This document shows, piece after piece, positions 10,084 to 33,654 of a stretch of DNA of 64,000 nt (the first letter of the stretch is position 1; the number at the start of each line of letters is the position of its first letter). The notes under the pieces were generated by a model, which searched no databases, had not been told where the DNA came from, and saw nothing but the letters and a program-made list of their open reading frames with translations. Source of the DNA: an uncultured Gammaproteobacteria bacterium (GTDB taxonomy: Bacteria; Patescibacteriota; Patescibacteriia; UBA10025; JAHIVO01); the NCBI GenBank assembly GCA_964592105.1, contig CAZQBL010000016.1, positions 2,560-66,559 on the forward strand. The letters run 5' to 3'. Made by a program: the position numbers and the translations under genes.

Positions 10084-10974
10084 ATGTTCAATTTTTTTGG
10101 GGAAAATAAAAACAAAACAGCCGAAAAAAATTCAATCAATCAGCCAAATTTTCCACAAAACCAGCTGACGAAGAACAACGAGAATAGTTTAAAAAAAGGG
10201 GCTTTGGTTTTTTTGTTGATTATAGGCATAGGTTCGCTGATTTTCGGTATTTTTGAAATGCAGCGCCGGATTAAATTGGTTGAAGTTGAAATCAACACCA
10301 ATACCGCTGAACTTTCTCTTTTAAATAACGAAAATACCACGAATACTCGGTCATCGGCGGTACTTGAAGATCTTCGCGGAAAAGATACGGATAAGGACGG
10401 ACTTTCTGATTACGATGAACTTTATCAGTATCGCACCAGCCCATATATCACAGATTCGGACAGCGATGGCCTCGGGGATTACCTAGAAGTGTCCCAAGGA
10501 TCAGATCCAAATTGCCCTCAGGGTCAGGACTGCGGACGCTCAGTGAATTCCAATACCAACGCGCAAGCCAACACCAATGTATTCTTTGGGGATATCCAGC
10601 CAAATGTTGATTTGAATAATTTGACGGCCGATGAGATTCGCAATCTCCTGCGTAACAACGGCGCCTCTGAAGCGGATTTGAGTCAAATAGATGATGCCTC
10701 ACTGATGCAAACTTATCATGAGGTGCTGGCCGAGCATGGCGGTACGGCTTCAACGAACACCAATAGCACGGCCCTCAATATAAATTCTCTTTCAAATGGC
10801 GATCAGCAAACAGTGACTTACGAGCAGTTGAAGAACCTAACGCCCACGGAGATCAGACAATTGCTAATTGAAACGGGTGTGGCCGAGGAAACTCTTAGCT
10901 CGGTTGACGACACTACCTTGCGGTCTATTTATCTGGATGCTTTAGAGCAGCAGCTGCAGAACTCAACCCAATAA
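10084..10974 (+). CDS. membrane-anchored protein with thrombospondin-type-3-like Asp-rich calcium-binding repeats
   Basis: An N-terminal TM (ALVFLLIIGIGSLIFGIF). Two D.D.DG..D motifs: DTDKDGLSDYDE and DSDSDGLGDYLE. A C-terminal internal duplication of about 40 aa: NLTADEIRNLLRNNGASEADLSQIDDASLMQTY and NLTPTEIRQLLIETGVAEETLSSVDDTTLRSIY. Confidence 0.5.
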   Translation: MFNFFGENKNKTAEKNSINQPNFPQNQLTKNNENSLKKGALVFLLIIGIGSLIFGIFEMQRRIKLVEVEINTNTAELSLLNNENTTNTRSSAVLEDLRGKDTDKDGLSDYDELYQYRTSPYITDSDSDGLGDYLEVSQGSDPNCPQGQDCGRSVNSNTNAQANTNVFFGDIQPNVDLNNLTADEIRNLLRNNGASEADLSQIDDASLMQTYHEVLAEHGGTASTNTNSTALNINSLSNGDQQTVTYEQLKNLTPTEIRQLLIETGVAEETLSSVDDTTLRSIYLDALEQQLQNSTQ

Positions 10975-10986
10975 AATAAGTCAACA

Positions 10987-13900
10987 ATGTTTTCAAGGAA
11001 AAAAAAAGTTAAAAAAACCAGCTCGCGGATGACTTTGTTTTTGCTGGTTTTTTGCGGCTGGCTTATCACGGCTCCGCTGCTTTTTTATACCCATGATGCT
11101 TATGCTCAGTGGGCCACGACCGAGGTCGGTCCGCAATTGCATCTCTCTATTTGGCAGAAAATCTGGAACAGTTTACAAAAGTCCTTGAAAACCGCGGGCG
11201 ATGTGGCTTTCAAAAACATGCTGAAAAGGTATTTGGATAATCTGGCTTATAATATGGCTACCAAAATCGCCACTGGCCAGCCAGGGCAAAAACCGACCTA
11301 TCCCACCAAGCCTCTTAATTTTTTGAAAGACGCCGGTGACGCGGCGGCCGGTGATTTACTGAACATGTTGGTCAACGAAACCCTCCCCGGCAAGTGCGAG
11401 GGACATTCTTATCAAACCTGTTTAAAGGATTCGGATTGTCCGCCGGTAGTACTGGCTTGCCATCCGACTCATGCTGAGGTGGTTATGGGGCGGACTCTTA
11501 ATCCAGCAAAGAACCCCGAAACGAAAGAGGGATATAATTGGTTGTTGACACATAGGGTATGCACGATAGTCAAATGCACCGAGAGTAGTTGTGATCTTCC
11601 GCCCGAGGGTTATAACGTTTGGAGTACCGTCGGTATCTGTAATCCCGCCGGTATAAATTTGTGTACTACTGATGTGGCTTTGAAATTAAAATTGACCGGG
11701 TACGCCCGGCAGTATCTTGAAGGTACCAGTGGAAAAGTAACCAGCGTTTGTCCTTTATCGGATATAATCAAGAATTACAACGCCACTACCCATCAAAAAT
11801 TGGTAGATTTGCAAAAATATTTCAATCCCCAGGCCAATCAACTGGGCATGTTCGGTGAAATAATCAGCGAAGGACAGCTGTTTAAGGCCCAAGCCGTTGA
11901 CGCAAAAAAGTTTGCCCAGTCATTGGCCGGAGAATTTTTTCCGCAAACGACAAAAATTTCCGGTGTGGTGAAAACACCCGCGTCTCTGGTAAAAAGCGCG
12001 GCTGAAGATATTCTACCAGCTTCGCTTGATCCATACGTGACTTATACCGGCTCTGCCATTGCCGACGCGGTTGGCGTTTTTACCAATACCTTGGCTTCCA
12101 AGCTCATGGAGAAATATATTTTTGGCAAGGGCTTTAATCCCGGCGCGGTTAGCCCGTCTTCCGGCAGCTCCAGAGGGTTGGCCGGTTCTATACCCGGCAT
12201 AGCTGCCGCTAAGTTGCTTTTTTCATCAATAAGCGAAACCAACTATTCAGTCGGCGGCGAAGTGGATCTATTGGGCCAGCTGGCCAGCTGTCCGGACAAG
12301 AACGATCCCTTGCCGACTAACTGCGTTATTGATAATAATTTCAGGACAGCGATAGAGCAACAGCTGACTGTTAAGGAAGCCTTGGATCAGGGCCTGCTGG
12401 GTGGTAATAAAGTATTTGGTTACGATGCCAATGGACGAGAGCCGGATTACTTGAGTGGTTATCCTTATCGGAGTTTGCTGATTTTACGCAAATACCGAAT
12501 CATCCCGGTGGGTTGGGAACTGGCCGCCGAATATATTAAGAATTTTTCCGGAGGTAATTACAGTCTGAATACTTTAATACAAGAATACCATAATACCAGT
12601 TCTCCGTTTTATCATTTGATAGATCCTAACTGGGTGTTGAAAAGTCCGGCGGTTTTTTGTAAAAAACAGGGTGCCAGCGCAAAAATCGCGGCCACTTCCC
12701 AGGTGGTTACGGGGGATACCAATCACGACGGTAGCGTTGACAAGAAAGATATTGCCGTGACTACGGTTCAGCGCGAGGATTATTGCGCTGACGAGCAAAC
12801 CTGCGTAGCCGAAGCCGATGATGGAACTTGTTTGCGCTATGGTTATTGCATTGAGGAAAAACCGATCTGGAAATTCGAAGGCGAATCTTGCCTGGCGCAA
12901 TATAACACTTGCCAAACTTTCCAGCGGCGGAATGGGGTCAGTGTTTCTTATTTGAAAAATACCATAGATGTCAATGGTTGTGACTCGAGCAACGTTGGTT
13001 GCCAGAATTATTATACTGAATTCAACTATGATACCAAGCAATGGGACAATAATGGTGATCAGATTAACTTCAATAAAAATGTCGAATCATGTTTGGCTAG
13101 CGGCGAGGGCTGTCATGAGTTTATGTTGGTTAAAGACAGCGGCGTAAACTTGCAGGTCAATTCGGATTTTGAGTCATTCACCGGCACCAAAGACGATGGG
13201 GCCGACGATGATTTTCCTGGTTGGAACACACCGGGCCTTGCTGAAGCCGTTTCGGTTGACGGCATTTCCGGTCAGACTTCGGCTAAACTTCAGGCTGGCG
13301 ATACCTTGGTTTCTGAGCCGGTTGAGACAGGTTCTATTAATAATGACAGATCGTTTACTGTTTCTTTTTATGCTAAAGCCGATAGCGCCAGTTGCGGCGC
13401 CAACCCCGGTACTTTAACAGCGAGTTTAGGCAGGCCCGTTACCGCTTTTGGTAATGTTCTGACGCCAGTCGGCACTATAAATTTAACCGAGACCTGGACG
13501 CGATATTCAGGTACGGTGTACCTGCCCAAAGTTGCGGGCAATTTAGAAACTACTGTTTACGTTGTTTTCGAACGCAACGATTGCGTGGGTTATATTGACA
13601 ATGTTCAGGTGGAGGAAGGCGGACTCACTCCATATAAGACTTACGAAGATTCGCCCAAACTATACATTAAAAAATCCCCTGGTTATCTTGACTGCGCCCA
13701 CAATCTAACCCGACCGGAATGTGCGGCTTTTGCTCTGGCTTGTGTCGCAGACGAAGTTGGCTGTCAGGCCTTTACCTCGGTTTCAACCGGCGAGGTTGTC
13801 AATGGAACAATTTCCAATCCGCTCGGCTGTAATCCGCTGGATCCGTCTTCATGCAATCAGTGCCCGGCTCAATACGCGGGTTGCAAGGCCTACCGAGAAT

Positions 13901-16900
13901 TAGCTATTACGCATGTGCCACAGCGCGCTGAACGCGACCCGGTATCTTTTGTGGCCGCGACCGGTGTTTCCTGTCCGGCCTCGGCCGTGGGCTGCGAAGA
14001 GTATACCAATCTTGATGAAGTGGCCAGAGGCGGCGAAGGCACGGAGTATTATACCTTGATCAGGCAATGCGTTAATGAGGACGCGGCTGGCGTGGCTAAT
14101 TATTATTCATGGGAAGGTTCCGATGAGTTTGGTTATCAGCTGAAAAATTATAGATTAAAAACTACAAACGTTGGTGGCAGTAACGCGCCATGTACTAACA
14201 TGAACCCCGAGGGCGGTGTCGCACCGGCCTGGCCGAATTGCAACGATAGCAGCAACCCAGCTGATTCTAATTACTGGGCAATTTGTGCCGACCCGGCCGT
14301 AGATACCTGCAATTTAGCCACTCATCAGTGCAACATTACTAACGCCGCATGTAATACAAATCAGGATTGTATTGACAATCGTCTGGCGGCTAACCCCGAC
14401 TGCACTGAGTTTTACGATGAAAGCGGTAACATTTATTATCGCCTGAAATCACGCGTGATATATGCTTCCGATCAGTGCATAAATTATCGTAATTCAATAG
14501 ACGGCGCTTCTCTGGTATATCACATGATTCCCGGACAAGGCTTGTCCTGCAGCGCTGCTTACGCTGGTTGCCGTGCCTATAAAGGCAATACCGGTGATAA
14601 CGTGCGGACTATTTATCAAAATAATTTTGAAAACGGCACGGTAAATCCTTGGACCGGCAATGCTTACTACAGCAATGAGTCAGTCCAGCAGGGCGGACAT
14701 TCCATGCTGATTGCCAACGTCGCAAATTACGAAAATGTGGGCACCGAACTCGGCTTTGCGGCAGGTAATTCGTATTCGATTTCTTTCTGGGCCAAAGCCG
14801 GCGGTGTTGATACGAATATTAGCGTAGTTCTCAACACGGCCACGCCATTGACTTTCGCTGGGCAGGCCACGGCCAGAAGCGGAGAGTGGAATCGCTATGA
14901 GTTAGGTCCTTTATTCGTGCCAGAAAATGCGGATTTGACGGCGGCGCGTTTATCTATATTCTCTACCAACGCTTTCTATCTGGATTCAATAGTAATTAAG
15001 CAGGTTAGGGACAATGTTTATTTCATCAAGGATTCATATCAGGAATGCTCGGGTTGGGAAAATTGCGACGAATACGTGGATAGAAATAATTCCACTCACT
15101 ATTTGAAATCTTTTACCAAATTGTGCAGTCCCGATAAGGTCGGTTGTTCGGCTATGATTGACACCCAGAATTCAAGATCGCCGTTTGCGACTGTTTATCC
15201 TTTGAATTCTACGCTGCCGATCAACAATCTTACGGCGCCGGCCGATACAGTCACGACTCTGATTAATGACCCGATCAAATATTGTTCGGCTAATGATAAA
15301 GGTTGCCAACTTTTAGGCAAACCGAATTTGGACAATAATCTTAATATTGTTAATTTTACCGACACTTATGTACGCAATAACCCGGATGATTATGACAATA
15401 TCCTGTGTCTGAATGAGGAAATCGGTTGTGAAGAATATAAAGTTGAGGGTTCAAGCCCCATGTATTTCAAAGATCCAGGAGAAAGAGTTTGTGAATTTAA
15501 GCGCGTGACCGGCCAGGAAGTCAGCGGCTGGTATAAAAGAGGTACAGAGAGCGGGGCGCCGGACTGTCCAACTACCAGTGGGGTTTGTGTTGCCGGTCCC
15601 CGTGCCGGTAACTGGTGTGCTGTGGATTCTGACTGTGGCGTGGGCGGTGCCTGCAGTCCTATTCCTGAAAGACCAATAGAGGACGCCACTGGTCCCTGGG
15701 TAGGCGTGTGCCAGGCTGCGGCTTCGGGGTGCACGGAAATTAGGGATCCGGAAGATCCGCAATTCTGCGACGCGCGAATACCAGGTGATTGTAAATCGTA
15801 TTACTATATTTCCAATACCCTAGATAAGGGTTCGTGCAACGGTATTGTCAGTCGAGATGAGGGTTGCCGCCTCTTCAACGACACTTCATCAACAACACTG
15901 AATTACTCCGCCGATAATTCTCCTGATAAACGGCCGCCGGTTTTATGCAGTGATCCTGCAGGTCAGGCAATGGATTGTAATGCCAATACTATTATTAAGA
16001 TACGCCGTGACCGCGTCTGCGGCACCTGGCTGGAGTGCAGGAGCGCCTGGCCCGTAAAAAATAAACAAGGTAAAATCGAAAACCTTTGTCTGCAGTTATC
16101 CGCTTGCGACCAGTTTGATCCGGATTCGGGGCAGTGTACACACCCCGTACTCCAATCCCATGCTAATGAGACCTATAACTCACCAGTTTATGTTGATGAA
16201 ATTAAAAATTATTCTGGCTTGGTCACGGCGGGTTTGGAATGGGGTAGGCGATGCAAGAATAATCCCAACATTGTGTGTACGAACAACGCCCAGTGCAAAG
16301 TTTGCAGTAATGACGTAACTCGCCCCTGTGCCACCAGTGCCAATTGTCAGAACGGCGGTGTTTGTCCAGATGACGAACAGGCAGTCTGTCCGGCCACGCC
16401 GCAGATCATCCAAGGATATTATCCGTATAGCACCATGAATGAAGTTGGCAAGAGCGGCGCATCAAGTATAGATATGATCAGGAACGGGGATTTTGGTGAC
16501 AGCAATGCTGTGGCTAATAAAATAGTGAGTGATTATATCGCCTGCGGTGATGGGTCTTGTGGGAGTCAAATATTGGCAGAAGCGCCGATTCAAACATCTG
16601 AGTTTGGCGTTTGGAATAATCCTTTGCAGGGTGCCGGTGTGTCCATAGGCGAGGAAACCGCTGACGGATTTATTTCAGAGCAAGGTAGCGCCAATCTTGA
16701 TGAAAATAATGTGCTGATTGTCAGCCATCCTGAAACATACCCTGTGCCGGCTTGGTGGGGTGTTGCGGTTACTATTCCTGAGATTTCCTCAAGCCAGGAA
16801 TTTGCTTTGAGTTATAAAGTTAAAAGATCAGCCTTGCCCGCGGGTTCCGGTAATCGGATAGATGTCTTTTTGGCTTGGGATGCGGCTGAACAGCCTGTTC

Positions 16901-19131
16901 ATGACCGCGGACAAACCTGGATGCCTGTCAGCCAGTCTTATGATGTCGGCACAGAGTGGAAAGAGTTCATCGTAAAGATGAATATCTCCGAGCTGGTGGA
17001 TAACTGGATAGCCGGTGATCCCGGGAATCTTCGGCCGTCTGATAAATCGGCAATTATGTCTGAAATAAACGCAGCCAGTGATTTCAGTTTGAGATTCCAG
17101 TCGCGCACCGGCTCGGCCATTGATTTTTACCTTGATGATGTGTCCATGAAACCGGTCTTGGAAGTGCAGAACCCCCCGTCTCCCGCGACTTTGGTGCGGC
17201 GTACTTGCCGCATGTATCCGGAGTCGAATGCTTCATCCTGCACTTATACTGATGAAAATAATGTCACTCACCGTGGCTGGTACGGTTATTGTTTGGAAGC
17301 CGATCCGCACAACCCCAACTACTGCCTTAATTGGTGGCCGATAGACATATTGAGCGGTGAGACTAATATTTTTAACACTACCCAGGTCGGCTATCAGGGC
17401 CGTTCGCCATTGTATATGTGCGTCCAGGCAGAAGGGAATTATAATCAAGGAGGTTTTAACGGTGACGTGGAATGTCAGTCCAATAATAACTATTGCGGCG
17501 ATGATGTACCCATCGAACTTTGTGGTAAACAGCCCACTGGTTATTATAGAGTTTTTCATAGCCACATTGCCGGGGGAGACGTAAGCGAAGATGAGAGTTG
17601 TGCGGGAGAACATAGCTGTGGTCGTATGGAAGACTTGGCCGATTGTGACGATCAGACAATTTCAGGGATTTGTGGTTGTGACGAGACTCCTGTGGCGCCC
17701 GGCTGGCGCAATATTACCGATCCGGCTGATCAATATTATGAATGGCAGATTGATAAAATATATTGGACAGCGCAAGCGGTTTCGCACAGCGATTGGCGAC
17801 CAACCCGAGCCTATCCAGGACAATATGTACCAGGTGTTGGAGATGTTTACTTCATCACTGATCGCAGTAACAACTGGGGCAATGATCCCGGGAGTGGTCA
17901 CTGGGAATTTGCAGGTAATATTTTGGATATTCGCGTCGAATTTAATGCCCAACATCGACTTTCAAGAGTCTATGCTTATATGTTTGATGGTAGTGATAAT
18001 GAAGGCGGCGCCTGGGTTCAGGGAGTGATACAGTTGCGCGAATATTGCACGCAAATTGCCCAAGTAGTTCAATCCAATGGCGAGAACAAGGCCTGGACAG
18101 GCCGGACCACTCAATTAGCCGGCTATAAAGTTCCTGATTTGCTTTTCGGCTACACCCAGGATTATGTACCGTTTGGCGGTATTGTTCAGCCGGCTTCTTC
18201 CAGCGATCCTGAGAGCTGGTCAGCGGGCAGCGGGCTCGGACCCCTCTATATTCAAAAGACTTCGGCTTCAACCTCGCGGGGTGGAAGTCCATACAGTTGC
18301 GCTAATCCTAACGGGTGTCGTAACCGTACCTGTAGCACTGGTGAGAATGACTGTTCGGACAATAGTGATGTAATAGACTGTTATGATGGCCCCGACGATA
18401 ATATCAATTTGGCGGACGACAATGGGTATTGTATCGGTTTGGGTACCGGATTTTGTAGCGACATGAACACGGTTCTGTGTGATCAGGATTCTGATTGTGG
18501 TTCAAATGGACTATGTACTATTCCTAAATTTCCCAATAGCGGTGGCGCGGCCAATATCACCGATCCGCAGCAGGCTATCATGAGAATCAGGGAGTTATTT
18601 GCCGATGCTTACGATGCCTGGACCTGGAATCCAGCTACTGGTGAGTATGATAATACTCCTAATCTGATCACGTCAAATTGGCGGACAAGCTTTGCCGATA
18701 TGACAGTCTGCCCGGGTAATAATAGGACAGGTGCTTACCCCGCTGATTATTGCGGCGTTACGCCGGTTGCCAACAATTTCTCCGTTGGTTCAGGAAACCA
18801 GACACACATCACCGTGAACAAAGCCCAGTTGATCCAGCTTAACTTTAATATTAATGTTAATCCCGAGCAGCTGCCGATCCAGTCGGTGGAAGTAGCCTGG
18901 GATAATGATATTTTACACAATTCTCTAATCCAGGGCCCGTTCGGCAGCGGTCCGATGATGTTGGCGCATTTCTATGATGTGCCAGGTATTTATACCCCAC
19001 GCGTTCAAATAGTCGATAATTGGGGCTTCTGCAGTGATGATCCTCGGGGAGGAATGACCAGGGGTGATACTTGTACTCGTGATTTAAATCGTTGGCTTTC
19101 CTCGAATATTACTATTATGGTTAAAGATTAG
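10987..19131 (+). CDS. giant (2714 aa) secreted cysteine-rich surface protein with carbohydrate-binding-module-like (CBM4/9-like) jelly-roll domains
   Basis: A signal peptide ends AYA/QW. More than 100 Cys are present with a recurring (V/A/I)GC(Q/E/K/R)(A/E)(Y/F) motif. Three segments resemble the CBM4/9 family: ...FYAKADSASCG...YIDNVQVEEG, ...SFWAKAGGVD...FYLDSIVIKQV and ...DFYLDDVSM. Confidence 0.7.
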   Translation: MFSRKKKVKKTSSRMTLFLLVFCGWLITAPLLFYTHDAYAQWATTEVGPQLHLSIWQKIWNSLQKSLKTAGDVAFKNMLKRYLDNLAYNMATKIATGQPGQKPTYPTKPLNFLKDAGDAAAGDLLNMLVNETLPGKCEGHSYQTCLKDSDCPPVVLACHPTHAEVVMGRTLNPAKNPETKEGYNWLLTHRVCTIVKCTESSCDLPPEGYNVWSTVGICNPAGINLCTTDVALKLKLTGYARQYLEGTSGKVTSVCPLSDIIKNYNATTHQKLVDLQKYFNPQANQLGMFGEIISEGQLFKAQAVDAKKFAQSLAGEFFPQTTKISGVVKTPASLVKSAAEDILPASLDPYVTYTGSAIADAVGVFTNTLASKLMEKYIFGKGFNPGAVSPSSGSSRGLAGSIPGIAAAKLLFSSISETNYSVGGEVDLLGQLASCPDKNDPLPTNCVIDNNFRTAIEQQLTVKEALDQGLLGGNKVFGYDANGREPDYLSGYPYRSLLILRKYRIIPVGWELAAEYIKNFSGGNYSLNTLIQEYHNTSSPFYHLIDPNWVLKSPAVFCKKQGASAKIAATSQVVTGDTNHDGSVDKKDIAVTTVQREDYCADEQTCVAEADDGTCLRYGYCIEEKPIWKFEGESCLAQYNTCQTFQRRNGVSVSYLKNTIDVNGCDSSNVGCQNYYTEFNYDTKQWDNNGDQINFNKNVESCLASGEGCHEFMLVKDSGVNLQVNSDFESFTGTKDDGADDDFPGWNTPGLAEAVSVDGISGQTSAKLQAGDTLVSEPVETGSINNDRSFTVSFYAKADSASCGANPGTLTASLGRPVTAFGNVLTPVGTINLTETWTRYSGTVYLPKVAGNLETTVYVVFERNDCVGYIDNVQVEEGGLTPYKTYEDSPKLYIKKSPGYLDCAHNLTRPECAAFALACVADEVGCQAFTSVSTGEVVNGTISNPLGCNPLDPSSCNQCPAQYAGCKAYRELAITHVPQRAERDPVSFVAATGVSCPASAVGCEEYTNLDEVARGGEGTEYYTLIRQCVNEDAAGVANYYSWEGSDEFGYQLKNYRLKTTNVGGSNAPCTNMNPEGGVAPAWPNCNDSSNPADSNYWAICADPAVDTCNLATHQCNITNAACNTNQDCIDNRLAANPDCTEFYDESGNIYYRLKSRVIYASDQCINYRNSIDGASLVYHMIPGQGLSCSAAYAGCRAYKGNTGDNVRTIYQNNFENGTVNPWTGNAYYSNESVQQGGHSMLIANVANYENVGTELGFAAGNSYSISFWAKAGGVDTNISVVLNTATPLTFAGQATARSGEWNRYELGPLFVPENADLTAARLSIFSTNAFYLDSIVIKQVRDNVYFIKDSYQECSGWENCDEYVDRNNSTHYLKSFTKLCSPDKVGCSAMIDTQNSRSPFATVYPLNSTLPINNLTAPADTVTTLINDPIKYCSANDKGCQLLGKPNLDNNLNIVNFTDTYVRNNPDDYDNILCLNEEIGCEEYKVEGSSPMYFKDPGERVCEFKRVTGQEVSGWYKRGTESGAPDCPTTSGVCVAGPRAGNWCAVDSDCGVGGACSPIPERPIEDATGPWVGVCQAAASGCTEIRDPEDPQFCDARIPGDCKSYYYISNTLDKGSCNGIVSRDEGCRLFNDTSSTTLNYSADNSPDKRPPVLCSDPAGQAMDCNANTIIKIRRDRVCGTWLECRSAWPVKNKQGKIENLCLQLSACDQFDPDSGQCTHPVLQSHANETYNSPVYVDEIKNYSGLVTAGLEWGRRCKNNPNIVCTNNAQCKVCSNDVTRPCATSANCQNGGVCPDDEQAVCPATPQIIQGYYPYSTMNEVGKSGASSIDMIRNGDFGDSNAVANKIVSDYIACGDGSCGSQILAEAPIQTSEFGVWNNPLQGAGVSIGEETADGFISEQGSANLDENNVLIVSHPETYPVPAWWGVAVTIPEISSSQEFALSYKVKRSALPAGSGNRIDVFLAWDAAEQPVHDRGQTWMPVSQSYDVGTEWKEFIVKMNISELVDNWIAGDPGNLRPSDKSAIMSEINAASDFSLRFQSRTGSAIDFYLDDVSMKPVLEVQNPPSPATLVRRTCRMYPESNASSCTYTDENNVTHRGWYGYCLEADPHNPNYCLNWWPIDILSGETNIFNTTQVGYQGRSPLYMCVQAEGNYNQGGFNGDVECQSNNNYCGDDVPIELCGKQPTGYYRVFHSHIAGGDVSEDESCAGEHSCGRMEDLADCDDQTISGICGCDETPVAPGWRNITDPADQYYEWQIDKIYWTAQAVSHSDWRPTRAYPGQYVPGVGDVYFITDRSNNWGNDPGSGHWEFAGNILDIRVEFNAQHRLSRVYAYMFDGSDNEGGAWVQGVIQLREYCTQIAQVVQSNGENKAWTGRTTQLAGYKVPDLLFGYTQDYVPFGGIVQPASSSDPESWSAGSGLGPLYIQKTSASTSRGGSPYSCANPNGCRNRTCSTGENDCSDNSDVIDCYDGPDDNINLADDNGYCIGLGTGFCSDMNTVLCDQDSDCGSNGLCTIPKFPNSGGAANITDPQQAIMRIRELFADAYDAWTWNPATGEYDNTPNLITSNWRTSFADMTVCPGNNRTGAYPADYCGVTPVANNFSVGSGNQTHITVNKAQLIQLNFNINVNPEQLPIQSVEVAWDNDILHNSLIQGPFGSGPMMLAHFYDVPGIYTPRVQIVDNWGFCSDDPRGGMTRGDTCTRDLNRWLSSNITIMVKD

Positions 19132-19139
19132 CCAAAACA

Positions 19140-25014: not shown

Positions 25015-25016
25015 AA

Positions 25017-25439: not shown

Positions 25440-25535
25440 TTGAGTAATGTATTATTTTAAGAAATATGAGGACCAAGACTCAAGGAAATAAATTTTATAT
25501 TATACATTATTCATAATAAATAATAAATTAAGAAC

Positions 25536-26219: not shown

Positions 26220-26221
26220 TT

Positions 26222-28114
26222 ATGGTGGAATTATTTCGCAAAACAAAAGTAATGCCGACCGAGACCCCGCCGGAGTTAAGCCCAGCAGAACAGCAGCAAC
26301 TGGCTCGCGAGCAGCTTGAAGAAAAAAAGGAATTATTGGAAGCGGAACGAGTTTATCGACGAGGCGTAACTACGGTTAAGGATTTAATTGCACCGGCTGC
26401 CATGAAAGTGGAGTCAAAATACTTGGAGCTTGGCTCGCAGTTCGTGCGCACGCTTTTTGTGGTCACTTACCCGCGTTATATCCGGGTAGGTTGGTTCGCG
26501 CCCATTATCAATCTCAACGTGCCTTTGGATATAGCCATGTATTATTATCCTATCGGCTCCGAAGTTATTCTAAAACAATTAAGGAATAAGGTCGGCGCTT
26601 TGGAGGCGCAAATATTGTCAGACGCGGAAAAAGGAGCCCCGCGCGATCCTATCCGCGAAACAGCTTTGCGGGATATTGAAAAATTACGTGATGATTTGAC
26701 CCAGGGCGTGGAGAGATTTTTCCAATTCGCCCTGTATGTGACTCTTTACGCGGGTAGCAAGGATGAGCTGGATAAGATATCCGAAAAAGTGGAATCATTA
26801 TTCGGTTCCAAGCTGGTTTATACCAAACGCGTGCTGTATCAGTCCGAGCAAGGGTTCAACTCTACTTTGCCTTTGGCTAATGATGAACTAGGTATCAGTT
26901 TCAATCTTTCTACTTCTCCATGCGCCTCGTCTTTTCCTTTCATTTCTTCGGAACTTACTTCTGACAACGGTATTCTTTACGGCATCAACCGCCATAATAA
27001 CAGTTTAATTTTGTTTGACCGATTTTCTTTGCAAAATGCTAATTCAGTAGTCTTTGCCACTTCCGGCGCCGGAAAAAGTTACGCCGTAAAACTGGAAATT
27101 TTGCGAAGTATGATGTTGGGCACGGACGTTATTGTTATCGACCCGGAAATGGAATACAAATATTTATCCGACGCGGTCGGCGGCACTTACATTAATATTT
27201 CATTAAGTTCAGAAAGCAAAATAAATCCTTTTGACCTGCCTCGCCCTACCCGCAAAGATGAAAAAACATCGGATATAATTCGTTCGGCGGTTATTACCTT
27301 AAAAGGTCTTTTGCGTCTAATGTTAGGTCAATTTACACACGAAGAAGATTCACTTGTTGATCGGGCGCTTATCGAAACATATGCCAAAAAAGATATTACC
27401 AGCGATTCGGATTTAACTCATATTGAGCCGCCAATTTTCAAGGATTTTGAGGAAGTGCTGGAAGGTATGGTCGGAGCTGAAGATCTGGTAGTGCGGTTGA
27501 AAAAATACACCGAGGGTACTTTCGCCGGTCTGCTGAACAATCCAACCAACGTGGAACTGAATAATCAGCTGGTGGTTTTTTCCGTGCGCGATCTGGAGGA
27601 CGAATTAAAACCAGTAGGCATCTCCCTGATCGTGTCTTATATTTGGAATGTGGTTCGCTCCAGACTGAAAAAGCGTATCATGGTTATTGACGAAGGTTGG
27701 TGGTTGATGCAACAGGAAGATTCGGCCAAGTTCATTTATGCCCTGGTCAAGCGCTGCCGTAAGTATTATTTGGGAGTTACGACCATTACTCAGGATGTGA
27801 ACGATTTTTTACGCTCTCCATACGGCCAGGCGATAGTTACCAATTCATCCATACAGTTGCTAATGAAACAATCCCCGGCGGCCATCGATCTTATTGCCAA
27901 AACTTTTTTACTGACCGAAGGTGAAAAATACCTTCTTCTGGAATGCGGCGTGGGCGAGGGTATATTCTTTGCCGGTTCAAAACATGCCGCCATTAAAATC
28001 GTAGCTTCCTATACCGAAGATCAAATAATCACTTCCGATCCTAGGCAGCTTTTGGAGATTGAGCAAGCCAAGAAAGAGTTTGATCAGGCGCAGATGCAAC
28101 AGACACAAGGGTAG
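26222..28114 (+). CDS. virB4: VirB4/TrbE/CagE-family type IV secretion ATPase (central and C-terminal part)
   Basis: Walker A is FATSGAGKSYAVK and Walker B is IMVIDEGWWLM. VirB4-type blocks VTYPRYIRVGWFAPI and GVTTITQDVNDF are present. Confidence 0.85.
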   Translation: MVELFRKTKVMPTETPPELSPAEQQQLAREQLEEKKELLEAERVYRRGVTTVKDLIAPAAMKVESKYLELGSQFVRTLFVVTYPRYIRVGWFAPIINLNVPLDIAMYYYPIGSEVILKQLRNKVGALEAQILSDAEKGAPRDPIRETALRDIEKLRDDLTQGVERFFQFALYVTLYAGSKDELDKISEKVESLFGSKLVYTKRVLYQSEQGFNSTLPLANDELGISFNLSTSPCASSFPFISSELTSDNGILYGINRHNNSLILFDRFSLQNANSVVFATSGAGKSYAVKLEILRSMMLGTDVIVIDPEMEYKYLSDAVGGTYINISLSSESKINPFDLPRPTRKDEKTSDIIRSAVITLKGLLRLMLGQFTHEEDSLVDRALIETYAKKDITSDSDLTHIEPPIFKDFEEVLEGMVGAEDLVVRLKKYTEGTFAGLLNNPTNVELNNQLVVFSVRDLEDELKPVGISLIVSYIWNVVRSRLKKRIMVIDEGWWLMQQEDSAKFIYALVKRCRKYYLGVTTITQDVNDFLRSPYGQAIVTNSSIQLLMKQSPAAIDLIAKTFLLTEGEKYLLLECGVGEGIFFAGSKHAAIKIVASYTEDQIITSDPRQLLEIEQAKKEFDQAQMQQTQG

Positions 28115-28337
28115 TCGTTCGGAGGGACGTCGTCCTGGGTAAACGACCGAATAATCCTCATTCACGGAATTGATTTCACGTGAAGCAAATCAAGATTTAC
28201 ACCGTATATAAATTAACCAAACTGGAAAGATTTGACTGATTTCATATTACATATTATAAATGGATTAATAAAGATTCTTCGCTCCGCTCAGAATGGCGAT
28301 GGTGGGCACATAATAATCAAAATAATAAATTATTTAT

Positions 28338-28916
28338 ATGGTCATGACCGAAAATAATAAAAGGATATTAATCGTTGTTGTTGTAGTTGTGATTGTCGCC
28401 GCGGCTTTCGTGATTTGGTGGTTGACACGACCAGCCGAAGAAATAATCGGCAACACCAATACCACGCCCGTGAACAACGCCCAAACTGTAGTTATCAACA
28501 CCAATACCGCCGCCAACCAGAATACCAACGCTCAAACCGAAGAGCAGGTAGCCATGGTGCGTTTGGCCAATCTTTTTACTGAGCGCTTCGGCAGCTATTC
28601 TTCTGAAGCGGAATTTCAGAATATTATTGATTTGAAAAAGTTTATGACGACTAAAATGCAATCTTGGGCCGATACTTACGTGACCACGCATAAAAAAACT
28701 CTTAATAGTCAAAGCACCTTTATATCCATAACTACCAAAGTGCTGTCAACTACAGTAAACAGTTTTTCGGATAAAAAAGCCGAGGTTCGCTCCACGACTT
28801 CGCGGGTTGAGGAGGGAGAAAATACCAATGACGTTAGAGCCTATAATCAGGATATTGTTTTACAGCTTGTAAAACAGGGGAATGACTGGAAAGTAGATAG
28901 TGCCTTTTGGCAATAA
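28338..28916 (+). CDS. membrane-anchored protein, possibly VirB8/PrgL-like (NTF2-like fold)
   Basis: An N-terminal TM helix, an Asn/Thr/Gln-rich linker, then a globular domain of about 120 aa that ends in W. The call rests on position downstream of virB4 and on topology; sequence similarity is not demonstrable by eye. Confidence 0.3.
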   Translation: MVMTENNKRILIVVVVVVIVAAAFVIWWLTRPAEEIIGNTNTTPVNNAQTVVINTNTAANQNTNAQTEEQVAMVRLANLFTERFGSYSSEAEFQNIIDLKKFMTTKMQSWADTYVTTHKKTLNSQSTFISITTKVLSTTVNSFSDKKAEVRSTTSRVEEGENTNDVRAYNQDIVLQLVKQGNDWKVDSAFWQ

Positions 28917-28928
28917 ACTAACATCAAT

Positions 28929-29774
28929 ATGGCCATAGATTCCGCCGACAAACCCCAGTGGCTGAAGGACATGAATAAAAGGACTTCGGATTATGAGCGT
29001 GACATGAAAAGGCATTTGAATGAGGTCGAGAGGAAATCCAAAAAACCGGTGGATAATGCTTTGGAGCACGACAGGACTTTTCATGAAACTAAGCAGGAGC
29101 ATGACCGCCAATTCATGAAGCAAAAAATCGCTGAATACAGCCCGGAAGCCATGAGTAGCCGCGAGACCCAGATGAGAAGAGAGTATCTCCGGGCAAAACA
29201 GCAGGAGTACCTTAATATTCCTTCCCCCGGCCAAACAGAAGAGAGTGAGGAAGAAGAAGGGGCCAAGGAAAGTGGTGGAGAAACAGCGCTGGAGGAACAA
29301 CAGGGCGGCATCAAAGGCGCCTTGGCTCGCCAGAAACAGAAAGACAGTATGGCCTTGGAACAGGCCAACAAAGCCAAAGCTGCTCTGGCGGCCGGTGAAA
29401 TCGGAGAGTTGGATGCCACGGTGGTTATTAAATATAAGCTTTTATGGAGCTATGTACATGAGTTTTTTGAGGATTTAGCGCTTTCGTTTTTTGATATAAT
29501 GCTGTTTACCGGACCTTTGTGCGTGGCTTTCTTTCTGTTCAGGATATTGGGCATGTTGAGCATCGGCAGAATGTTTACAATAAATTTCAAAGACGTGAAA
29601 GTTCCTCTGGTGCCGACGTTTAGTATGGCCGAGGTGCCATTACGGGTGGGAAAAACACTGCTTATTGCCGTTATCAGCGGAACCATCTGGTTATTAATAA
29701 TATTTGCCGCCTGGGTCGTGACGCATCAATTGGAGTTTACTTGGGAGTCGATTAAGGCCTTTCTCGGAATTTAA
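28929..29774 (+). CDS. hypothetical protein with charged coiled-coil N-terminus and two C-terminal TM helices
   Basis: ORF-track protein with hydrophobic segments FTGPLCVAFFLFRILGML and LLIAVISGTIWLLIIFAAWVV. Confidence 0.4.
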   Translation: MAIDSADKPQWLKDMNKRTSDYERDMKRHLNEVERKSKKPVDNALEHDRTFHETKQEHDRQFMKQKIAEYSPEAMSSRETQMRREYLRAKQQEYLNIPSPGQTEESEEEEGAKESGGETALEEQQGGIKGALARQKQKDSMALEQANKAKAALAAGEIGELDATVVIKYKLLWSYVHEFFEDLALSFFDIMLFTGPLCVAFFLFRILGMLSIGRMFTINFKDVKVPLVPTFSMAEVPLRVGKTLLIAVISGTIWLLIIFAAWVVTHQLEFTWESIKAFLGI

Positions 29775-29829
29775 AAAAATTTATAAGCAATTTATTCATC
29801 CTGAAGTAAATTTTATATAATAATAATCT

Positions 29830-31032
29830 ATGACAACGCGCCGAATTTTTCTTCTGGCCATGGTAACTTATTTTATCCTTATCACCATCCTGTTTTTAGT
29901 TATGCCCCAGCTGGTGCGCGCGGCCGATACTTCAGTAGATAACAGTTGCAAAATAGGCAGCTCCAAAGAGGAAAAAGAGGCGGCCATCCGAGTAGCCATT
30001 CCTTTGCCGGGAGTAACCCAAAAAGTAACAATTTCAAATACGGAGTCATATAATGCCGTTAAAAATTTGTCCTGCTATTTGTCCGGCTTTTACCGTTATT
30101 TTGCCGGGGTGGCCGGTATTTTGGCCACGGTGATGATTATGTACGGGGGAATTCAGTACGTGATTTCTTTCGGCAATTCGGGCCGCTTGCAAGCGGCCAA
30201 AGACACTATTTTTTCGGCTATGGTCGGACTGGTTATTACCCTGGGTTCATATATTATTCTTTTTACAATCAATCCTAATTTAGTAACCCTAAAATTGCCG
30301 GAAGTTGGTAAGATTTATACTATTAACATAGATACCGATTGGTGTTTGTCTTCGGCTGGAGATATGCCTGTAGTCCCGGGCAGCACAGGCTGCGGCGATA
30401 AGGGCTTGCATACTGAAAATGGAACCCAGACAGAATGCATTTGGCAGGGTGATTGCGGGCAGAGTGGTCAAATTTGTTTCTATGGGCTTGGAGGTTATAA
30501 ATGTCGGGACCCCAAGGATACGTGTAAAAGTAGCTATAGCGATTTATGCCAGCAGGTCAGTCGCGCGATATATGCCGCCGGACTTACTTCTGGGGCCTGT
30601 GCGTCCAAGCCGCCCGACAGCCAGGAATGCGCCTGGGAAGAGCAGCTGCGTTGCCCGGACAACTGGGTCAGGGTAGACTGCACTTTTCACGGCATCGGTG
30701 ATCTCATTTCGACTCCCTGCACTGAAGTATTGGATAGTGTAAAATATTATTCTCTTGGTGGAGGCATGTTTCCCACGTTTTGTTTTGATTTCAGTGAGCG
30801 CCCGGTGGCTGCAGCCAACATTGAGTCAATCTGTTGCGCAGAACAGAGAGACATAGACTGCCGCTGGCCAAAAGGTAGGGGGCCGCTATTTGGGAACGAG
30901 ATCAATAGCAACGAAGTCCAGGTTGACTGCGCCCAATATCCCCCCCAACAATATCCGAACGCCTGTACTCAAGACGAGATTAGGCAGGGGATGATCTGCG
31001 CTATGCAGCTCGAACAACGTAATCGTAATTAA
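29830..31032 (+). CDS. pilin-like (VirB2/TrbC-like two-helix module) membrane protein with large cysteine-rich extracellular domain
   Basis: A signal/TM segment is followed by GVAGILATVMIMYGGIQYVISFGNSGRLQAAKDTIFSAMVGLVITLGSYIILFTINPNLV. This module is paralogous to the one in the gene at 32305. The ~250 C-terminal aa contain about 20 Cys. Confidence 0.5.
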   Translation: MTTRRIFLLAMVTYFILITILFLVMPQLVRAADTSVDNSCKIGSSKEEKEAAIRVAIPLPGVTQKVTISNTESYNAVKNLSCYLSGFYRYFAGVAGILATVMIMYGGIQYVISFGNSGRLQAAKDTIFSAMVGLVITLGSYIILFTINPNLVTLKLPEVGKIYTINIDTDWCLSSAGDMPVVPGSTGCGDKGLHTENGTQTECIWQGDCGQSGQICFYGLGGYKCRDPKDTCKSSYSDLCQQVSRAIYAAGLTSGACASKPPDSQECAWEEQLRCPDNWVRVDCTFHGIGDLISTPCTEVLDSVKYYSLGGGMFPTFCFDFSERPVAAANIESICCAEQRDIDCRWPKGRGPLFGNEINSNEVQVDCAQYPPQQYPNACTQDEIRQGMICAMQLEQRNRN

Positions 31033-31041
31033 TAATTTTTT

Positions 31042-32304
31042 ATGAATAAAAAAGCTCTCTATATAATACTTTTCGTCATAGCCACTTTGGCTTTCGCCGT
31101 ACTGATTTATCTCGTTTTTATAAAAGATTTGGTCGAGACGGCCACGAATGATAACGCTAATACCAACACGGCCCAAAATACCAACGGCGGTGGCTTACCG
31201 ATAATCAACGGCACAACAAGCGCCAATATAAATGCCGTATCTTTAAATACCAATAAGGTTATCACCAATACTATGGCCAGCAATGTTAACGGCCAGATGA
31301 TTTCCAATATTGCCAGCGGCGGACCTACTTCAGTCAAGCCGGTTGTTGACGCCCCGGTCGCTTCCGTCAAGCTCTCCACGGACGGTAATTTGAATTACTA
31401 TGATAAAAACCAGGGTAAATTTTATCGCGTAGACAAAAACGGTCAGGCCGTTGAATTGACCGATCAGCTTTTTCCCGAGGCCAAGGAAATTGCCTGGTCG
31501 CCGGCCGGTGATAAGGTGGTGGTCACCTTCCCTGATTTAAGAAAAATAATGTATGATTTCAACACCAAAAAACAGGCGACTTTGCCCAAAGAATGGGTAG
31601 ATGTTGAATTTTCACAATCGGGTGACAAGCTTGGGTTTAAAAATATGGCTGCTAATGAGGATGATCGCTGGCTGCAAATATCCAATCCTGACGGCACTGA
31701 GGTCCAATCCATTGAGCCTATCGGCGATAAAGGCGGTGATGTGGCGATCAACTGGTCGCCCAATAATCAGGTAGTGGCTACCTTTCGGCAGAGCGTTAAT
31801 GCTGACCAACAGGAAGTGCTGTTGATAGGGCTGCATGGGGAAAATTTTAAATCATTGCTGACCGAGGGTCGTGGTTTTGAAGCTCAGTGGTCCCCCAGCG
31901 GCGAACAGATGATTTACAGTGTTTACAACGAATCGACCGCCTATAATCCTAATCTTTATATTGTAGACGCGCAGGGAGACGAGATAGGCGCCAATAGAAT
32001 TAATTTAGGACTTCAAACTTGGCCGGATAAATGTACTTTTTCTAAGAGTAGCCCGACTTTATATTGCGCCGTACCCAGCAATCTGCCCGATGGTTCTGGT
32101 TTATCCCGAAGTTTGGCTGCCGGTACGACCGATACTATTTATGCTATCAACACTAACACCGGAGCCAAAAGCCCGGTGGCCTTACCGGTTTCAAGTAGTT
32201 TAAAGAAATACTCAATCAGTTCACTATTTTTATCAGAGGACGACAGTCTTTTGTATTTTCAGGACGCGACAACCGGGAAGGTTTATAAAATGCAGTTAAA
32301 GTAA
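31042..32304 (+). CDS. membrane-anchored PD40/TolB-like beta-propeller protein
   Basis: An N-terminal TM and an Asn/Thr-rich linker are followed by repeated WSP..D motifs: IAWSPAGDKVVVTF, INWSPNNQVVATF and AQWSPSGEQMIYSV. Confidence 0.55.
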   Translation: MNKKALYIILFVIATLAFAVLIYLVFIKDLVETATNDNANTNTAQNTNGGGLPIINGTTSANINAVSLNTNKVITNTMASNVNGQMISNIASGGPTSVKPVVDAPVASVKLSTDGNLNYYDKNQGKFYRVDKNGQAVELTDQLFPEAKEIAWSPAGDKVVVTFPDLRKIMYDFNTKKQATLPKEWVDVEFSQSGDKLGFKNMAANEDDRWLQISNPDGTEVQSIEPIGDKGGDVAINWSPNNQVVATFRQSVNADQQEVLLIGLHGENFKSLLTEGRGFEAQWSPSGEQMIYSVYNESTAYNPNLYIVDAQGDEIGANRINLGLQTWPDKCTFSKSSPTLYCAVPSNLPDGSGLSRSLAAGTTDTIYAINTNTGAKSPVALPVSSSLKKYSISSLFLSEDDSLLYFQDATTGKVYKMQLK

Positions 32305-33654
32305 ATGTTTGTTTTTAGGCCCACTGAAAAAATTTTGTGGTTGGGATTATGGCTAGCATTAATTTTTGCATTAATTCCGTTACATCAGGCCCTGGCCGAT
32401 TGCTGTTATGGCGGGGCTGGCCTTTGCGGTCTGCCGGATCCAGTGGAGCGCAGTTGTACAAATGGCTGGTCTTATTTGCCCGGTGACTGTCCGCAGGACT
32501 GCAACCAGCCGGCGCCCGGCGCGCTCATTCAATGCTGTATTTGTCAGCCCTCAACGCCTGGTGAGATCGTAGTTTGTGGCAAACCGGTGACCGACGCTGA
32601 ATTTCCCTGCGGCGCTTCATTGGATTGCCGGCAGAGCCAGTTTTCATGCCAAGATCTAAATAATAATCCACAATGCGCAGAGTGGCTGAAAATAAGCGGT
32701 GAAACCGAGAAGTCTGAGTCACTGTTTTTTGAATTAAATTTTTCTATACCGGGCTCTGAGATATTTAACGCTGGCAAGTCCATAAAGATAACTGGCGCTA
32801 CTTTAGGAGAATATATTGTGGCGCTTTATGTTTTTTTGGTTGGCGTCGGCGGTATCTTGGCTACGATCATGATGATGTGGGGAGGTTTACGGTACGTGGT
32901 TTCCGGAGGCAGTCCCCAGCGGATTTCAGAGGCCAAAGACCAGATCACTGCCGCACTCTCTGGCTTTATAATCTTATTGGCTTCTTATTTGTTGTTATTA
33001 ACGATCAATCCCAACTTGGTGAAGTTCGAGGGATTGTCCGGCGTCAGACCGGTCGAGCAAATTCTCCAAAGCCTGGAGAGCAAGTCAAGCTCGGCTAAAG
33101 GCATGCCGCCGGTTAAGTGGGAAGGAGACAACGTTTCCTGTTTTGATAAGGAAATAACTGATATTGCCGCTCAAAAAGGCGTTGACCGGAACTGGCTAAA
33201 GGCCATAATGCTGGTTGAATCGTCTGGCCATGAAAAAATAGTTTCTTCAGCCGGGGCATGCGGCCTGATGCAGCTTTTGCCGCAAACCGCTAATAAATCC
33301 TGTACGGAATTGAAAGACCCCATTACCAATATTACGGCCGGGGCCGATTATTTTCTCTTCCTTAAGCAGAATGCCTGCCCCAGAGAAAATGCCAAGCATC
33401 CATGTAATTGGGGGCCGGTTTGTGATATTACGAATATGGATTTTGTGCTCGCCGCTTATAACGGCGGGCCGGGAGCTAACTGGTGCAGCGTGACCTGTAA
33501 ACAAGAAACCTGGTGGCAGTGTATCGGAAATCCTGGGTATGCAGAAACCAGAAACTATGTTATTAAGGTAAAACAAGCTTATGATAAAGTCAGCAGTGGT
33601 CTCGTTCCGTTTGTGTGGCAGCCAGATGAAACTTGTACTGGTATTGATGGATAA
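32305..33654 (+). CDS. cysteine-rich protein with pilin-like two-helix membrane module fused to a VirB1-type soluble lytic transglycosylase (SLT) domain
   Basis: SLT motifs LVESSGHEKIVSSAGACGLMQL, ITAGADYF and AAYNGGPGA. Upstream module GVGGILATIMMMWGGLRYVVSGGSPQRISEAKDQITAALSGFIILLASYLLLLTINPNLV. An N-terminal signal peptide plus a Cys-rich domain. Confidence 0.7.
   Translation: MFVFRPTEKILWLGLWLALIFALIPLHQALADCCYGGAGLCGLPDPVERSCTNGWSYLPGDCPQDCNQPAPGALIQCCICQPSTPGEIVVCGKPVTDAEFPCGASLDCRQSQFSCQDLNNNPQCAEWLKISGETEKSESLFFELNFSIPGSEIFNAGKSIKITGATLGEYIVALYVFLVGVGGILATIMMMWGGLRYVVSGGSPQRISEAKDQITAALSGFIILLASYLLLLTINPNLVKFEGLSGVRPVEQILQSLESKSSSAKGMPPVKWEGDNVSCFDKEITDIAAQKGVDRNWLKAIMLVESSGHEKIVSSAGACGLMQLLPQTANKSCTELKDPITNITAGADYFLFLKQNACPRENAKHPCNWGPVCDITNMDFVLAAYNGGPGANWCSVTCKQETWWQCIGNPGYAETRNYVIKVKQAYDKVSSGLVPFVWQPDETCTGIDG

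Follow-up and report, generated by a model that had tools for sequence, protein, structure and literature searches.

What does a type IV secretion gene cluster do when no coupling protein and no relaxase is encoded near it? The question is raised by a block of 13 consecutive open reading frames (ORFs), all colinear and on the + strand, that the ORF list and translations place at positions 10084-33654 of a 64,000-nucleotide (nt) stretch of contig CAZQBL010000016.1 (assembly GCA_964592105.1); this whole stretch is referred to below as the window. The block is a genuine type IV secretion system (T4SS) gene cluster and a good, complete example of one, of a type that has already been described in the chromosomes of ultrasmall Patescibacteria (the candidate phyla radiation, CPR; class ABY1), and it is not a new kind of system. 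With a probability of roughly 0.8, we read it as a T4SS that a Kerfeldbacteria-like Patescibacterium of class ABY1 carries on its chromosome and inherits vertically, that derives from Gram-positive conjugation machinery of the MPF-FATA type (similar to pGO1, pIP501 and CTn2) and that serves as a non-conjugative, contact-dependent conduit to a host cell. The identity and the general architecture of the system are well supported; its cargo is not. All the ORFs on which the original prediction was built are present where it had placed them, on the + strand, and are as follows (aa, amino acids; TM, transmembrane).

10084..10974 (+): 296-aa membrane-anchored protein with TSP3 (Ca-binding) repeats, Pfam TSP3_bac; one TM segment, aa 39-57
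10987..19131 (+): 2714-aa Cys-rich surface protein; N-terminal signal/anchor, two CBM_4_9 stretches, 113 Cys
19140..22232 (+): 1030-aa VirB6-like polytopic protein; seven TM segments between aa 23 and 346, then a hydrophilic extension of about 650 aa
22352..23464 (+): 370-aa soluble protein, unk370; no TM segment; follows VirB6 in 19 loci
23707..25014 (+): 435-aa soluble protein, unk435; always directly upstream of prgI
25017..25439 (+): 140-aa PrgI/VirB3-like protein, Pfam PrgI; two TM segments
25536..26219 (+): 227-aa TrsD/TraD-like protein, homologous to the N-terminal domain of VirB4 and encoded separately; NCBIfam matches below curated cut-offs
26222..28114 (+): 630-aa VirB4 ATPase of the CD1110 / MPF-FATA type; NCBIfam NF045971, Pfam P-loop_TraG
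28338..28916 (+): 192-aa bitopic VirB8-like protein; N-terminal TM segment, Asn/Thr-rich linker, NTF2-like domain
28929..29774 (+): 281-aa protein between the VirB8-like and pilin-like genes; charged N-terminal half, two or three C-terminal TM segments
29830..31032 (+): 400-aa VirB2-like Cys-rich protein; signal/anchor, two-helix hairpin at aa ~85-145, 250-aa ectodomain with 22 Cys
31042..32304 (+): 420-aa N-terminally anchored protein; sub-threshold Pfam propeller matches, TolB profile matches
32305..33654 (+): 449-aa VirB2-like/SLT fusion; signal/anchor, Cys-rich domain, hairpin at aa 166-232, SLT domain at aa 287-393

The motor of the system is represented by two of these proteins. The 630-aa protein scores 353 bits against the NCBIfam model NF045971 (CD1110 VirB4), above the curated cut-off of 325, with the match spanning model positions 153-730; it also matches Pfam P-loop_TraG (E = 9e-29), the AAA_10 and DUF87 domains and, weakly, the CedB model of NCBIfam (E = 1.3e-8), and its nucleotide-binding motifs are intact (Walker B IMVIDE in a motif search, Walker A ATSGAGKS in the translation). 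The score above the curated CD1110 cut-off identifies it as an ATPase of the VirB4 family, as had been proposed, and not as one of the FtsK or TraG type only, which was the stated alternative. The 227-aa ORF immediately upstream matches VirB4_plasma, the N-terminus of mycoplasma VirB4 (E = 6.4e-11), positions 2-163 of the CD1110 VirB4 model (E = 1.5e-6) and TrsD (E = 3.7e-6; 26.9 bits against a curated cut-off of 200), all in NCBIfam. Given that they map to CD1110 positions 2-163 and 153-730, respectively, the two ORFs jointly tile one VirB4, and the original prediction described them as a VirB4 in two pieces. This should not be taken to mean a fragmented gene: the TrsD-like protein and VirB4 are encoded by separate ORFs in 56 of 56 related loci, two Bacilli relatives among them, so the split is not damage. 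Together with the occurrence of all three frame offsets and of spacers up to 156 nt between the two genes in related loci, this excludes a VirB4 broken by a frameshift or turned into a pseudogene. These observations prove TrsD and VirB4 to be an ancestral gene pair, in the arrangement of TrsD and TrsE of pGO1/pIP501. In one Bacilli locus (L065, positions 9442-11782 of a metagenome-assembled genome), a separate 184-aa TrsD-like ORF overlaps virB4 by 8 nt, within the order VirB6 (TrbL_4), TrsD-like protein, VirB4, M23/lysozyme hydrolase and coupling protein; this locus is a useful outgroup for the Patescibacteria arrangement.

The translocon components are recognizable to different degrees. The 140-aa protein passes the Pfam cut-off for PrgI (E = 1.6e-8; 35.4 bits against 27) and has two TM segments (at aa 28-64), in agreement with its earlier description as VirB3/PrgI-like; its gene is found in 56 loci, at 33-76% identity of the product. 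The VirB6/TrbL-like identity proposed for the 1030-aa protein is reached indirectly and appears sound, through the seven TM segments and through its orthologues, 4 of 21 of which match Pfam TrbL/VirB6 (best E = 1.1e-5); the C-terminal extension is about 650 aa long and not about 550 aa as first estimated. The N-terminal ~370 aa of this protein are conserved in 25 loci, whereas the tail is poorly conserved and the full length varies from 487 to 1570 aa. The 192-aa protein, originally a possible VirB8-like component, gains support from structure, by which it is a VirB8-like bitopic protein with the NTF2 fold. A 15-sequence alignment was the input for structure prediction. Searches of the PDB with profiles of the VirB6 N-terminal region, the VirB8-like protein, unk435, unk370 and TrsD, and with the giant protein, gave no useful match.

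The genes for the pilin-like proteins form the distal part of the block. The hairpin of the 400-aa protein reaches 26.5 bits against Pfam T4SS_pilin (E = 6.8e-6), 0.1 bit under the cut-off of 26.6; that of the 449-aa protein, which has 24 Cys, passes it (E = 1.7e-9, 38.1 bits), and the two hairpins are paralogous (40% identity over 124 aa, E = 8e-19), so the prediction of two pilin-like Cys-rich proteins stands. The 449-aa protein also contains the SLT domain (Pfam, E = 2.2e-18, 66 bits), with the motifs ES (305), GLMQ (320) and AYNGG (384) in place, and this domain is predicted to act as a dedicated cell-wall hydrolase with the function of VirB1. A VirB1-type lytic transglycosylase had been expected at this position as a gene of its own; the enzymatic domain is there, fused to the second VirB2-like protein, and the pilin hairpin and the SLT domain occur together in 14 of 14 orthologues scanned. 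The gene for the 420-aa protein separates the two pilin-like genes; it is found in 34 loci (33-54% identity), between these two or adjoining them. The profile of this protein matches many TolB chains at E = 0.011-0.2, and it is probably a TolB/PD40-like beta-propeller; the PD40 propeller of the original prediction thus retains its likeness to TolB and PD40, weakly, with Pfam matches below threshold. Contrary to the view that only VirB4 and SLT are recognizable by sequence, PrgI and the second pilin domain pass their Pfam cut-offs, and the first pilin domain just misses its own. We take homology or fold as established for VirB4, TrsD, PrgI, VirB6 (via the orthologues), VirB8 (by structure), the pilin hairpins and SLT.

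A scan of genomes for VirB4 yielded 63 loci from Patescibacteria, where VirB4 is 55-90% identical, and three from Bacilli, where the identity is 23%. Among the best 120 of 8000 VirB4 homologues (E <= 1e-10), those with a named source come from Patescibacteria/CPR, at 74-100% identity, so that by sequence comparison all the close relatives of this VirB4 are from Patescibacteria, at 55-100% identity compared to 23% for Bacilli. The relatives include Kerfeld-, Komeili-, Uhr- and Magasanikbacteria, which we take to belong to class ABY1. The order unk435, PrgI, TrsD, VirB4, VirB8 is retained in nearly all 63 loci, and such recurrence of the core order in 63 related genomes puts the block far beyond chance. 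The locus as a whole is modular, with ksgA, alone or followed by the TSP3 gene, on the left; an optional module of the giant gene, VirB6 and unk370; the unk435-PrgI-TrsD-VirB4-VirB8 core; a pilin, propeller, pilin/SLT module; and radA and recG. The radA neighbourhood is conserved in about 29 loci. With all close VirB4 relatives in Patescibacteria and the ABY1 organization matched, the prediction of a T4SS-like membrane machine of the ultrasmall-episymbiont type, with no coupling protein or relaxase nearby, is borne out.

A separate observation concerns the labels of the sequence records. The records of L001, L004, L013, L015, L018, L020-L022 and some 15 others are titled 'uncultured Gammaproteobacteria bacterium', and one is titled 'Candidatus Methylomirabilis sp.'; records so titled that carry the Patescibacteria-type locus are probably mislabelled or mis-binned.

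The T4SS of Patescibacteria is no longer undescribed, although most of the present system had been called functionally so: it was surveyed in 2025 (Quinonero-Coronel et al., PMC12102498) and was found to be essential in one cultured species in 2023 (PMC10633639). According to the survey, the VirB4 clade of Patescibacteria is monophyletic and nests within MPF-FATA; TrsD, PrgI, VirB6 and VirB2 are common and relaxases rare; TrsD is the most abundant accessory component; and VirB8 homologues were detected almost only in ABY1, where comF, recG and radA are found near the T4SS genes (PMC12102498). In the Saccharibacterium Southlakia epibionticum ML1, the T4SS and pilin genes are essential for epibiotic growth and comEC is dispensable (PMC10633639; PMC12857230). 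In a 2025 review, such systems are classed as a new subgroup of T4SSs whose function is unknown (PMC12857230).

The absence of the functions that would make the locus a conjugation system was examined across the window. When the substantial ORFs of the 64 kb were scanned with Pfam, none was seen to have a domain of a coupling protein, of a relaxase, of VirB11 or of an integrase, and the window contains no notable intergenic inverted repeat that could be an oriT-like hairpin, so the claim that VirD4, relaxase, VirB11, integrase and oriT-like features are missing holds within these limits. For the coupling protein, this is not a problem of sensitivity because the same Pfam scan detects the coupling protein of the Bacilli locus L065, about 4 kb downstream of virB4 (T4SS-DNA_transf, E = 3.8e-54). 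The more general description of the system as one without a coupling protein is valid for the 64 kb and cannot be extended to the whole genome because VirD4-like genes are present in most Patescibacteria genomes, nearly all of them far from virB4 (PMC12102498). The search for an integrase or excisionase and for element boundaries revealed no integrase domain and no flanking repeat, and the flanks are housekeeping genes. No PilB/TadA-type ATPase, PilC/TadBC platform protein or prepilin peptidase, the set expected if the block were a Tad or type IV pilus apparatus, is encoded in 10084-33654; the pilM gene that opens at 62862 is part of another cluster, at the edge of the window.

At the other end of the block are the TSP3 protein and the giant Cys-rich protein. 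The 296-aa protein scores 25.9 bits against TSP3_bac (E = 9e-6), just above the Pfam cut-off of 25, which upholds its assignment as a Ca-binding TSP3-like protein, and an orthologue is located between ksgA and the unk435 gene in L045. The 2714-aa protein is indeed Cys-rich with CBM-like domains (CBM_4_9, E = 1.3e-14, in two stretches; 113 Cys) and has no sequence relative in the PDB. Its C-terminal ~400 aa are kept directly upstream of VirB6 in L003, L010, L013, L018 and L019, and of the roughly 17 loci that show the region in front of VirB6, 10 or more have a large Cys-rich ORF there. No adhesins were detected in the 2025 survey (PMC12102498), and the 2714-aa protein is, by its domains, a candidate adhesin and a reasonable candidate for the one that escaped detection there.

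The two unknowns that had been noted between the VirB6-like and PrgI-like genes are unk370 and unk435, both soluble and without a family match. For unk370, there is no match in Pfam, NCBIfam or the PDB, and Pfam scans over every member of the unk435 and unk370 families identified no family. The two are related, in that the N-terminal module of unk370 is homologous to the N-terminal extension of longer unk435-family members (hhalign probability 97.5%, E = 5.7e-12), and in some genomes, e.g. L046, single ORFs that look like fusions match both. The unk435 family is very large and unannotated (2,926 clusters); unk435 itself has two confident helical domains (aa ~121-204 and 332-433) with a Pro-rich disordered linker between them and a weak likeness to the PWI/Nab2-N fold. 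The 281-aa protein, for which no Pfam or NCBIfam family was found, has homologues only in L009 (upstream of unk435) and L016 among the related loci, and in L002, which is among the nearest relatives, the VirB8-like gene is only ~45 nt away from the pilin-like gene, which implies that the gene for the 281-aa protein is absent there; by this distribution it appears to be lineage-specific and not a conserved component.

The transcriptional and chromosomal setting of the block is summarized by three further features.

10043..10071 (+): predicted sigma-70 promoter, TTGACA, 17-nt spacer and TG-extended TATAAT; 13 nt upstream of the TSP3 gene
33661..34998 (+): radA, DNA repair/recombination helicase; Pfam zinc ribbon, KaiC/AAA_25 and Lon_C/ChlI domains; starts 6 nt past the end of the block
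35675..39826 (-): conserved flanking block of recG, three tRNAs, a bPH membrane protein gene and a comFC-like gene (the last at 39068-39826)

The block has operon structure, with a perfect promoter before the first gene and many gaps of 0-12 nt: 12 nt between the TSP3 and giant genes, 8 nt between the giant and VirB6-like genes, 2 nt between unk435 and prgI, 2 nt between the trsD-like gene and virB4, 0 nt between the propeller and pilin/SLT genes, and 6 nt between the latter and radA. The promoter matches the consensus at 12 of 12 positions, with the TG extension, and is the sole such match in the 20 kb scanned, where by our own arithmetic about 0.007 perfect matches per 40 kb of strand would be expected by chance; it suggests that the TSP3, giant and VirB6-like genes are strongly transcribed. 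A second promoter-like site, at 23644-23672 (10 of 12 positions, with TG), precedes unk435. Promoter-like counts overall are not clearly above those in shuffled controls; terminator-like sites in 28000-40000 number 30 against 15.7 (standard deviation 4.4) in shuffled controls and are mostly intragenic. The radA gene, predicted to follow the block immediately, does so and is probably co-transcribed with the T4SS genes.

The flanks consist of leuS, a Sua5-like gene (Sua5/YciO/YrdC family), an MFS transporter gene and ksgA upstream, and of radA, a DksA/TraR zinc-finger gene, recG, three tRNAs, the comFC-like gene, clpB, htpX and lemA downstream, and there is no step in GC content at either border of the block. 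Many other loci have comFC immediately after the VirB8-like gene. In L020, L031 and L041, whose flanks are long enough to show the cause, everything between the first pilin-like gene and comFC, these two included, has the opposite orientation to that in the window, so that a single inversion accounts for the adjacency, which is ruled out there as independent evidence of linkage.

Several other features of the window were noted in passing. Between radA and recG, there are a strong terminator-like hairpin at 35034-35060 (-) and a gene for a 116-aa DksA/TraR C4 zinc-finger protein at 35105-35455 (-; Pfam E = 5e-12). The tRNA genes, Arg-GCG, Ser-TGA and Ser-GCT, are interleaved with the bPH-domain membrane protein gene at 37869-39054 (-), between recG and the comFC-like gene; an Rfam scan found these three tRNAs and nothing else. 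A stand-alone gene for a 23S rRNA-intervening-sequence protein (8770-9087; Pfam E = 4e-12) is flanked by the MFS transporter gene and ksgA, in a window without an rRNA gene, and a 277-aa protein (852-1685) has two receiver (REC) domains and no detected output domain. A second run of very large unannotated proteins (692, 1315, 698 and 3100 aa) is encoded at 45026-62779 (+); the 692- and 698-aa proteins have weak DUF6454 matches in common, and the 3100-aa protein contains a dockerin domain and a sub-threshold BNR-like match. The 3100-aa gene is followed by pilM (62862-63980), with which a type IV pilus cluster extending beyond the window apparently begins.

Under our reading of the locus as a conduit, the VirB6-like, PrgI/VirB3-like and VirB8-like proteins would form the membrane translocon, and TrsD and VirB4 would form the cytoplasmic motor. 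The SLT domain, tethered to the membrane by the VirB2-like hairpin, would open the cell wall locally, and the extracellular, host-contacting part would be composed of the two VirB2-like Cys-rich proteins, the propeller protein and the giant CBM and TSP3 proteins. Such an assembly would connect the epibiont and its host cell in a contact-dependent manner and would not be a conjugation system. Tentatively, we suggest that the cargo is host-derived nucleic acid or nucleotides moving inward, with effector export about equally likely and adhesion alone less so. This suggestion is based on the precedents of ComB and Ced, the absence of a relaxase and coupling protein nearby, the position of radA 6 nt downstream of the block with recG and comFC in the conserved neighbourhood, the nucleotide auxotrophy of CPR bacteria and the fact that Southlakia can do without comEC. 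Others have proposed that nucleotides or DNA are acquired through the T4SS (PMC11665869), and a cultured relative, strain OT8, takes up host RNA and displays tubular structures, possibly T4SS pili, at the host interface (bioRxiv 10.64898/2026.06.21.733656). In a fuller form, which we consider rather unlikely, the ABY1 T4SS would import nucleic acid into a monoderm cell and be functionally analogous to ComB or Ced: the assembly of VirB2-like, propeller and giant adhesin proteins would contact or breach the host envelope, TrsD and VirB4 would pull host DNA or RNA inward via the VirB6/VirB8 channel, soluble unk435 would handle nucleic acid on the cytoplasmic side, and the co-transcribed RadA, with RecG and ComFC, would process the incoming single strands. 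If true, this would explain both how nucleotide-auxotrophic CPR bacteria are fed and why the T4SS is essential while ComEC is not.

A number of points weigh against the interpretation of the locus as a conduit with inward cargo. The cargo and the direction of transport are pure inference; the linkage of radA, recG and comFC is that of one conserved neighbourhood and may be historical rather than functional because these are housekeeping genes; a monoderm has no obvious need for a ComB-like step; T4SSs lacking a coupling protein can export proteins, and a distal coupling protein may exist. Furthermore, the 1030-aa VirB6-like protein has no Pfam or NCBIfam match of its own, the pilin-like proteins, with their 250-aa ectodomains, may not polymerise into a pilus, and the propeller assignment is weak.

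Conceivably, the locus could instead encode an effector-export machine that injects proteins into the host bacterium, or secretes them onto it, to manipulate or lyse it, the giant Cys-rich protein, unk370 and unk435 being the candidate substrates. This is as doubtful as inward transport itself. Protein-secreting T4SSs without a coupling protein exist, e.g. Bordetella Ptl and Brucella VirB (PMC12102498, PMC12857230), and Wang et al. (PMC10633639) favour protein export or an alternative role for the Southlakia system because the relaxase and the coupling protein are missing; in addition, two conserved soluble proteins, unk370 and unk435, the latter from a family of 2,926 clusters, are encoded within the locus. 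However, Pfam and NCBIfam scans of the locus recovered no recognizable effector, toxin or immunity domain, a secretion signal is not known, and the invariable position of unk435 directly upstream of prgI (2 nt in the window) speaks more for a structural or cytoplasmic accessory subunit than for a variable effector.

An apparatus for adhesion only, in which VirB4 drives an assembly platform for VirB2-like surface structures and adhesins and no substrate is translocated, is improbable. It would account for an extracellular set dominated by the two VirB2-like Cys-rich proteins, the propeller protein and the giant CBM protein, for the essential pilin arrays of Southlakia (PMC10633639, PMC12857230) and for the tubular structures at the host interface of strain OT8 (bioRxiv 10.64898/2026.06.21.733656), but not easily for the retention of the full translocon set (VirB3, VirB6, VirB8) and of a VirB4 conserved at 55-90% identity; moreover, type IV pili already provide adhesion in these organisms (PMC10633639, PMC12857230), and a pilM gene opens at 62862. 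Finally, the machinery does come from Gram-positive conjugation systems and shares the order of TrsD, VirB4 and hydrolase with a Bacilli element that carries a coupling protein, as would a decaying remnant, or cargo, of an integrative and conjugative element that had lost its relaxase, coupling protein and integrase. This possibility is effectively refuted: all ORFs are intact, including the Walker A, Walker B and SLT motifs, the VirB4 split is ancestral, the flanks are housekeeping genes, and there is no GC step, integrase or flanking repeat, whereas the same synteny in 63 species, with VirB4 55-90% identical, implies strong purifying selection. Conservation, intactness and housekeeping flanks together rule out such a remnant.

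Patescibacteria account for a large, mostly uncultured share of bacterial diversity and depend on host cells. To our knowledge, theirs is the sole T4SS so far proven essential to the bacterium that carries it, and the question of what these essential systems transport remains important. The window provides a clean, complete ABY1 example, in which nothing is categorically new and the parts list is sharpened. Five points are modestly new: a VirB2-like hairpin is fused to SLT in a conserved manner, VirB8 is backed by structure, unk435 stands for a large family, a propeller protein belongs to the set, and virB6 repeatedly has a giant Cys-rich neighbour; such giant proteins could be the missing adhesins. 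Given a culturable ABY1 or related strain, the sharpened parts are concrete targets.

Among known systems, Helicobacter pylori ComB and archaeal Ced provide the precedent for import: both are driven by VirB4, have equivalents of VirB2, VirB3, VirB6 and VirB8, lack a relaxase and coupling protein, and move DNA inward. They show no specific sequence affinity with the window locus, and ComB differs in having a diderm outer-membrane core (VirB7, VirB9, VirB10) and in still requiring ComEC at the inner membrane. The Trs/Tra systems of pGO1 and pIP501 (MPF-FATA) and the CTn2 CD1110 family share with the window locus the order of a VirB3-like protein (TrsC/PrgI), TrsD, VirB4 (TrsE) and a cell-wall hydrolase. 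In contrast to the window locus, which is chromosomal, includes pilin-like genes and has no relaxase or coupling protein within 64 kb, these systems are borne by plasmids or by integrative and conjugative elements, possess a relaxase and a coupling protein, lack VirB2-like pilins and transfer DNA outward.

The T4SS cluster of Southlakia epibionticum ML1 (SEML1_0006-0019; Wang et al. 2023, PMC10633639) is closer in composition, with Gram-positive-like subunits, a PrgI-family protein, VirB2-like pilins, a VirB6-like protein of more than 1000 aa with a C-terminal extension, an NTF2-like protein resembling pIP501 TraM, and no recognizable relaxase or coupling protein in the cluster. It differs from the window locus in its six-pilin gene array, with the pilin domain of SEML1_0018 and SEML1_0019 within approximately the first 125 residues, where the window has two large pilin-domain proteins, one of them fused to SLT; in the peptidase and lysozyme homologues that stand downstream of virB4 in place of SLT; in its class, Saccharimonadia; and in that essentiality has been demonstrated for it. 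The best match is with the ABY1-class T4SS of the 2025 survey (PMC12102498), which likewise has a chromosomal virB4 with trsD, prgI/virB3, virB6 and virB2-like genes nearby, a VirB8-like protein, no relaxase or coupling protein in the vicinity, ksgA upstream, and radA, recG and comF alongside. To the components named in the main text of that survey, the window adds several that are unmentioned there, namely, the VirB2-hairpin/SLT fusion, the large Cys-rich ectodomains of the pilin-like proteins, the conserved propeller gene, the unk435 and unk370 families, and the recurrent giant Cys-rich gene upstream of virB6.

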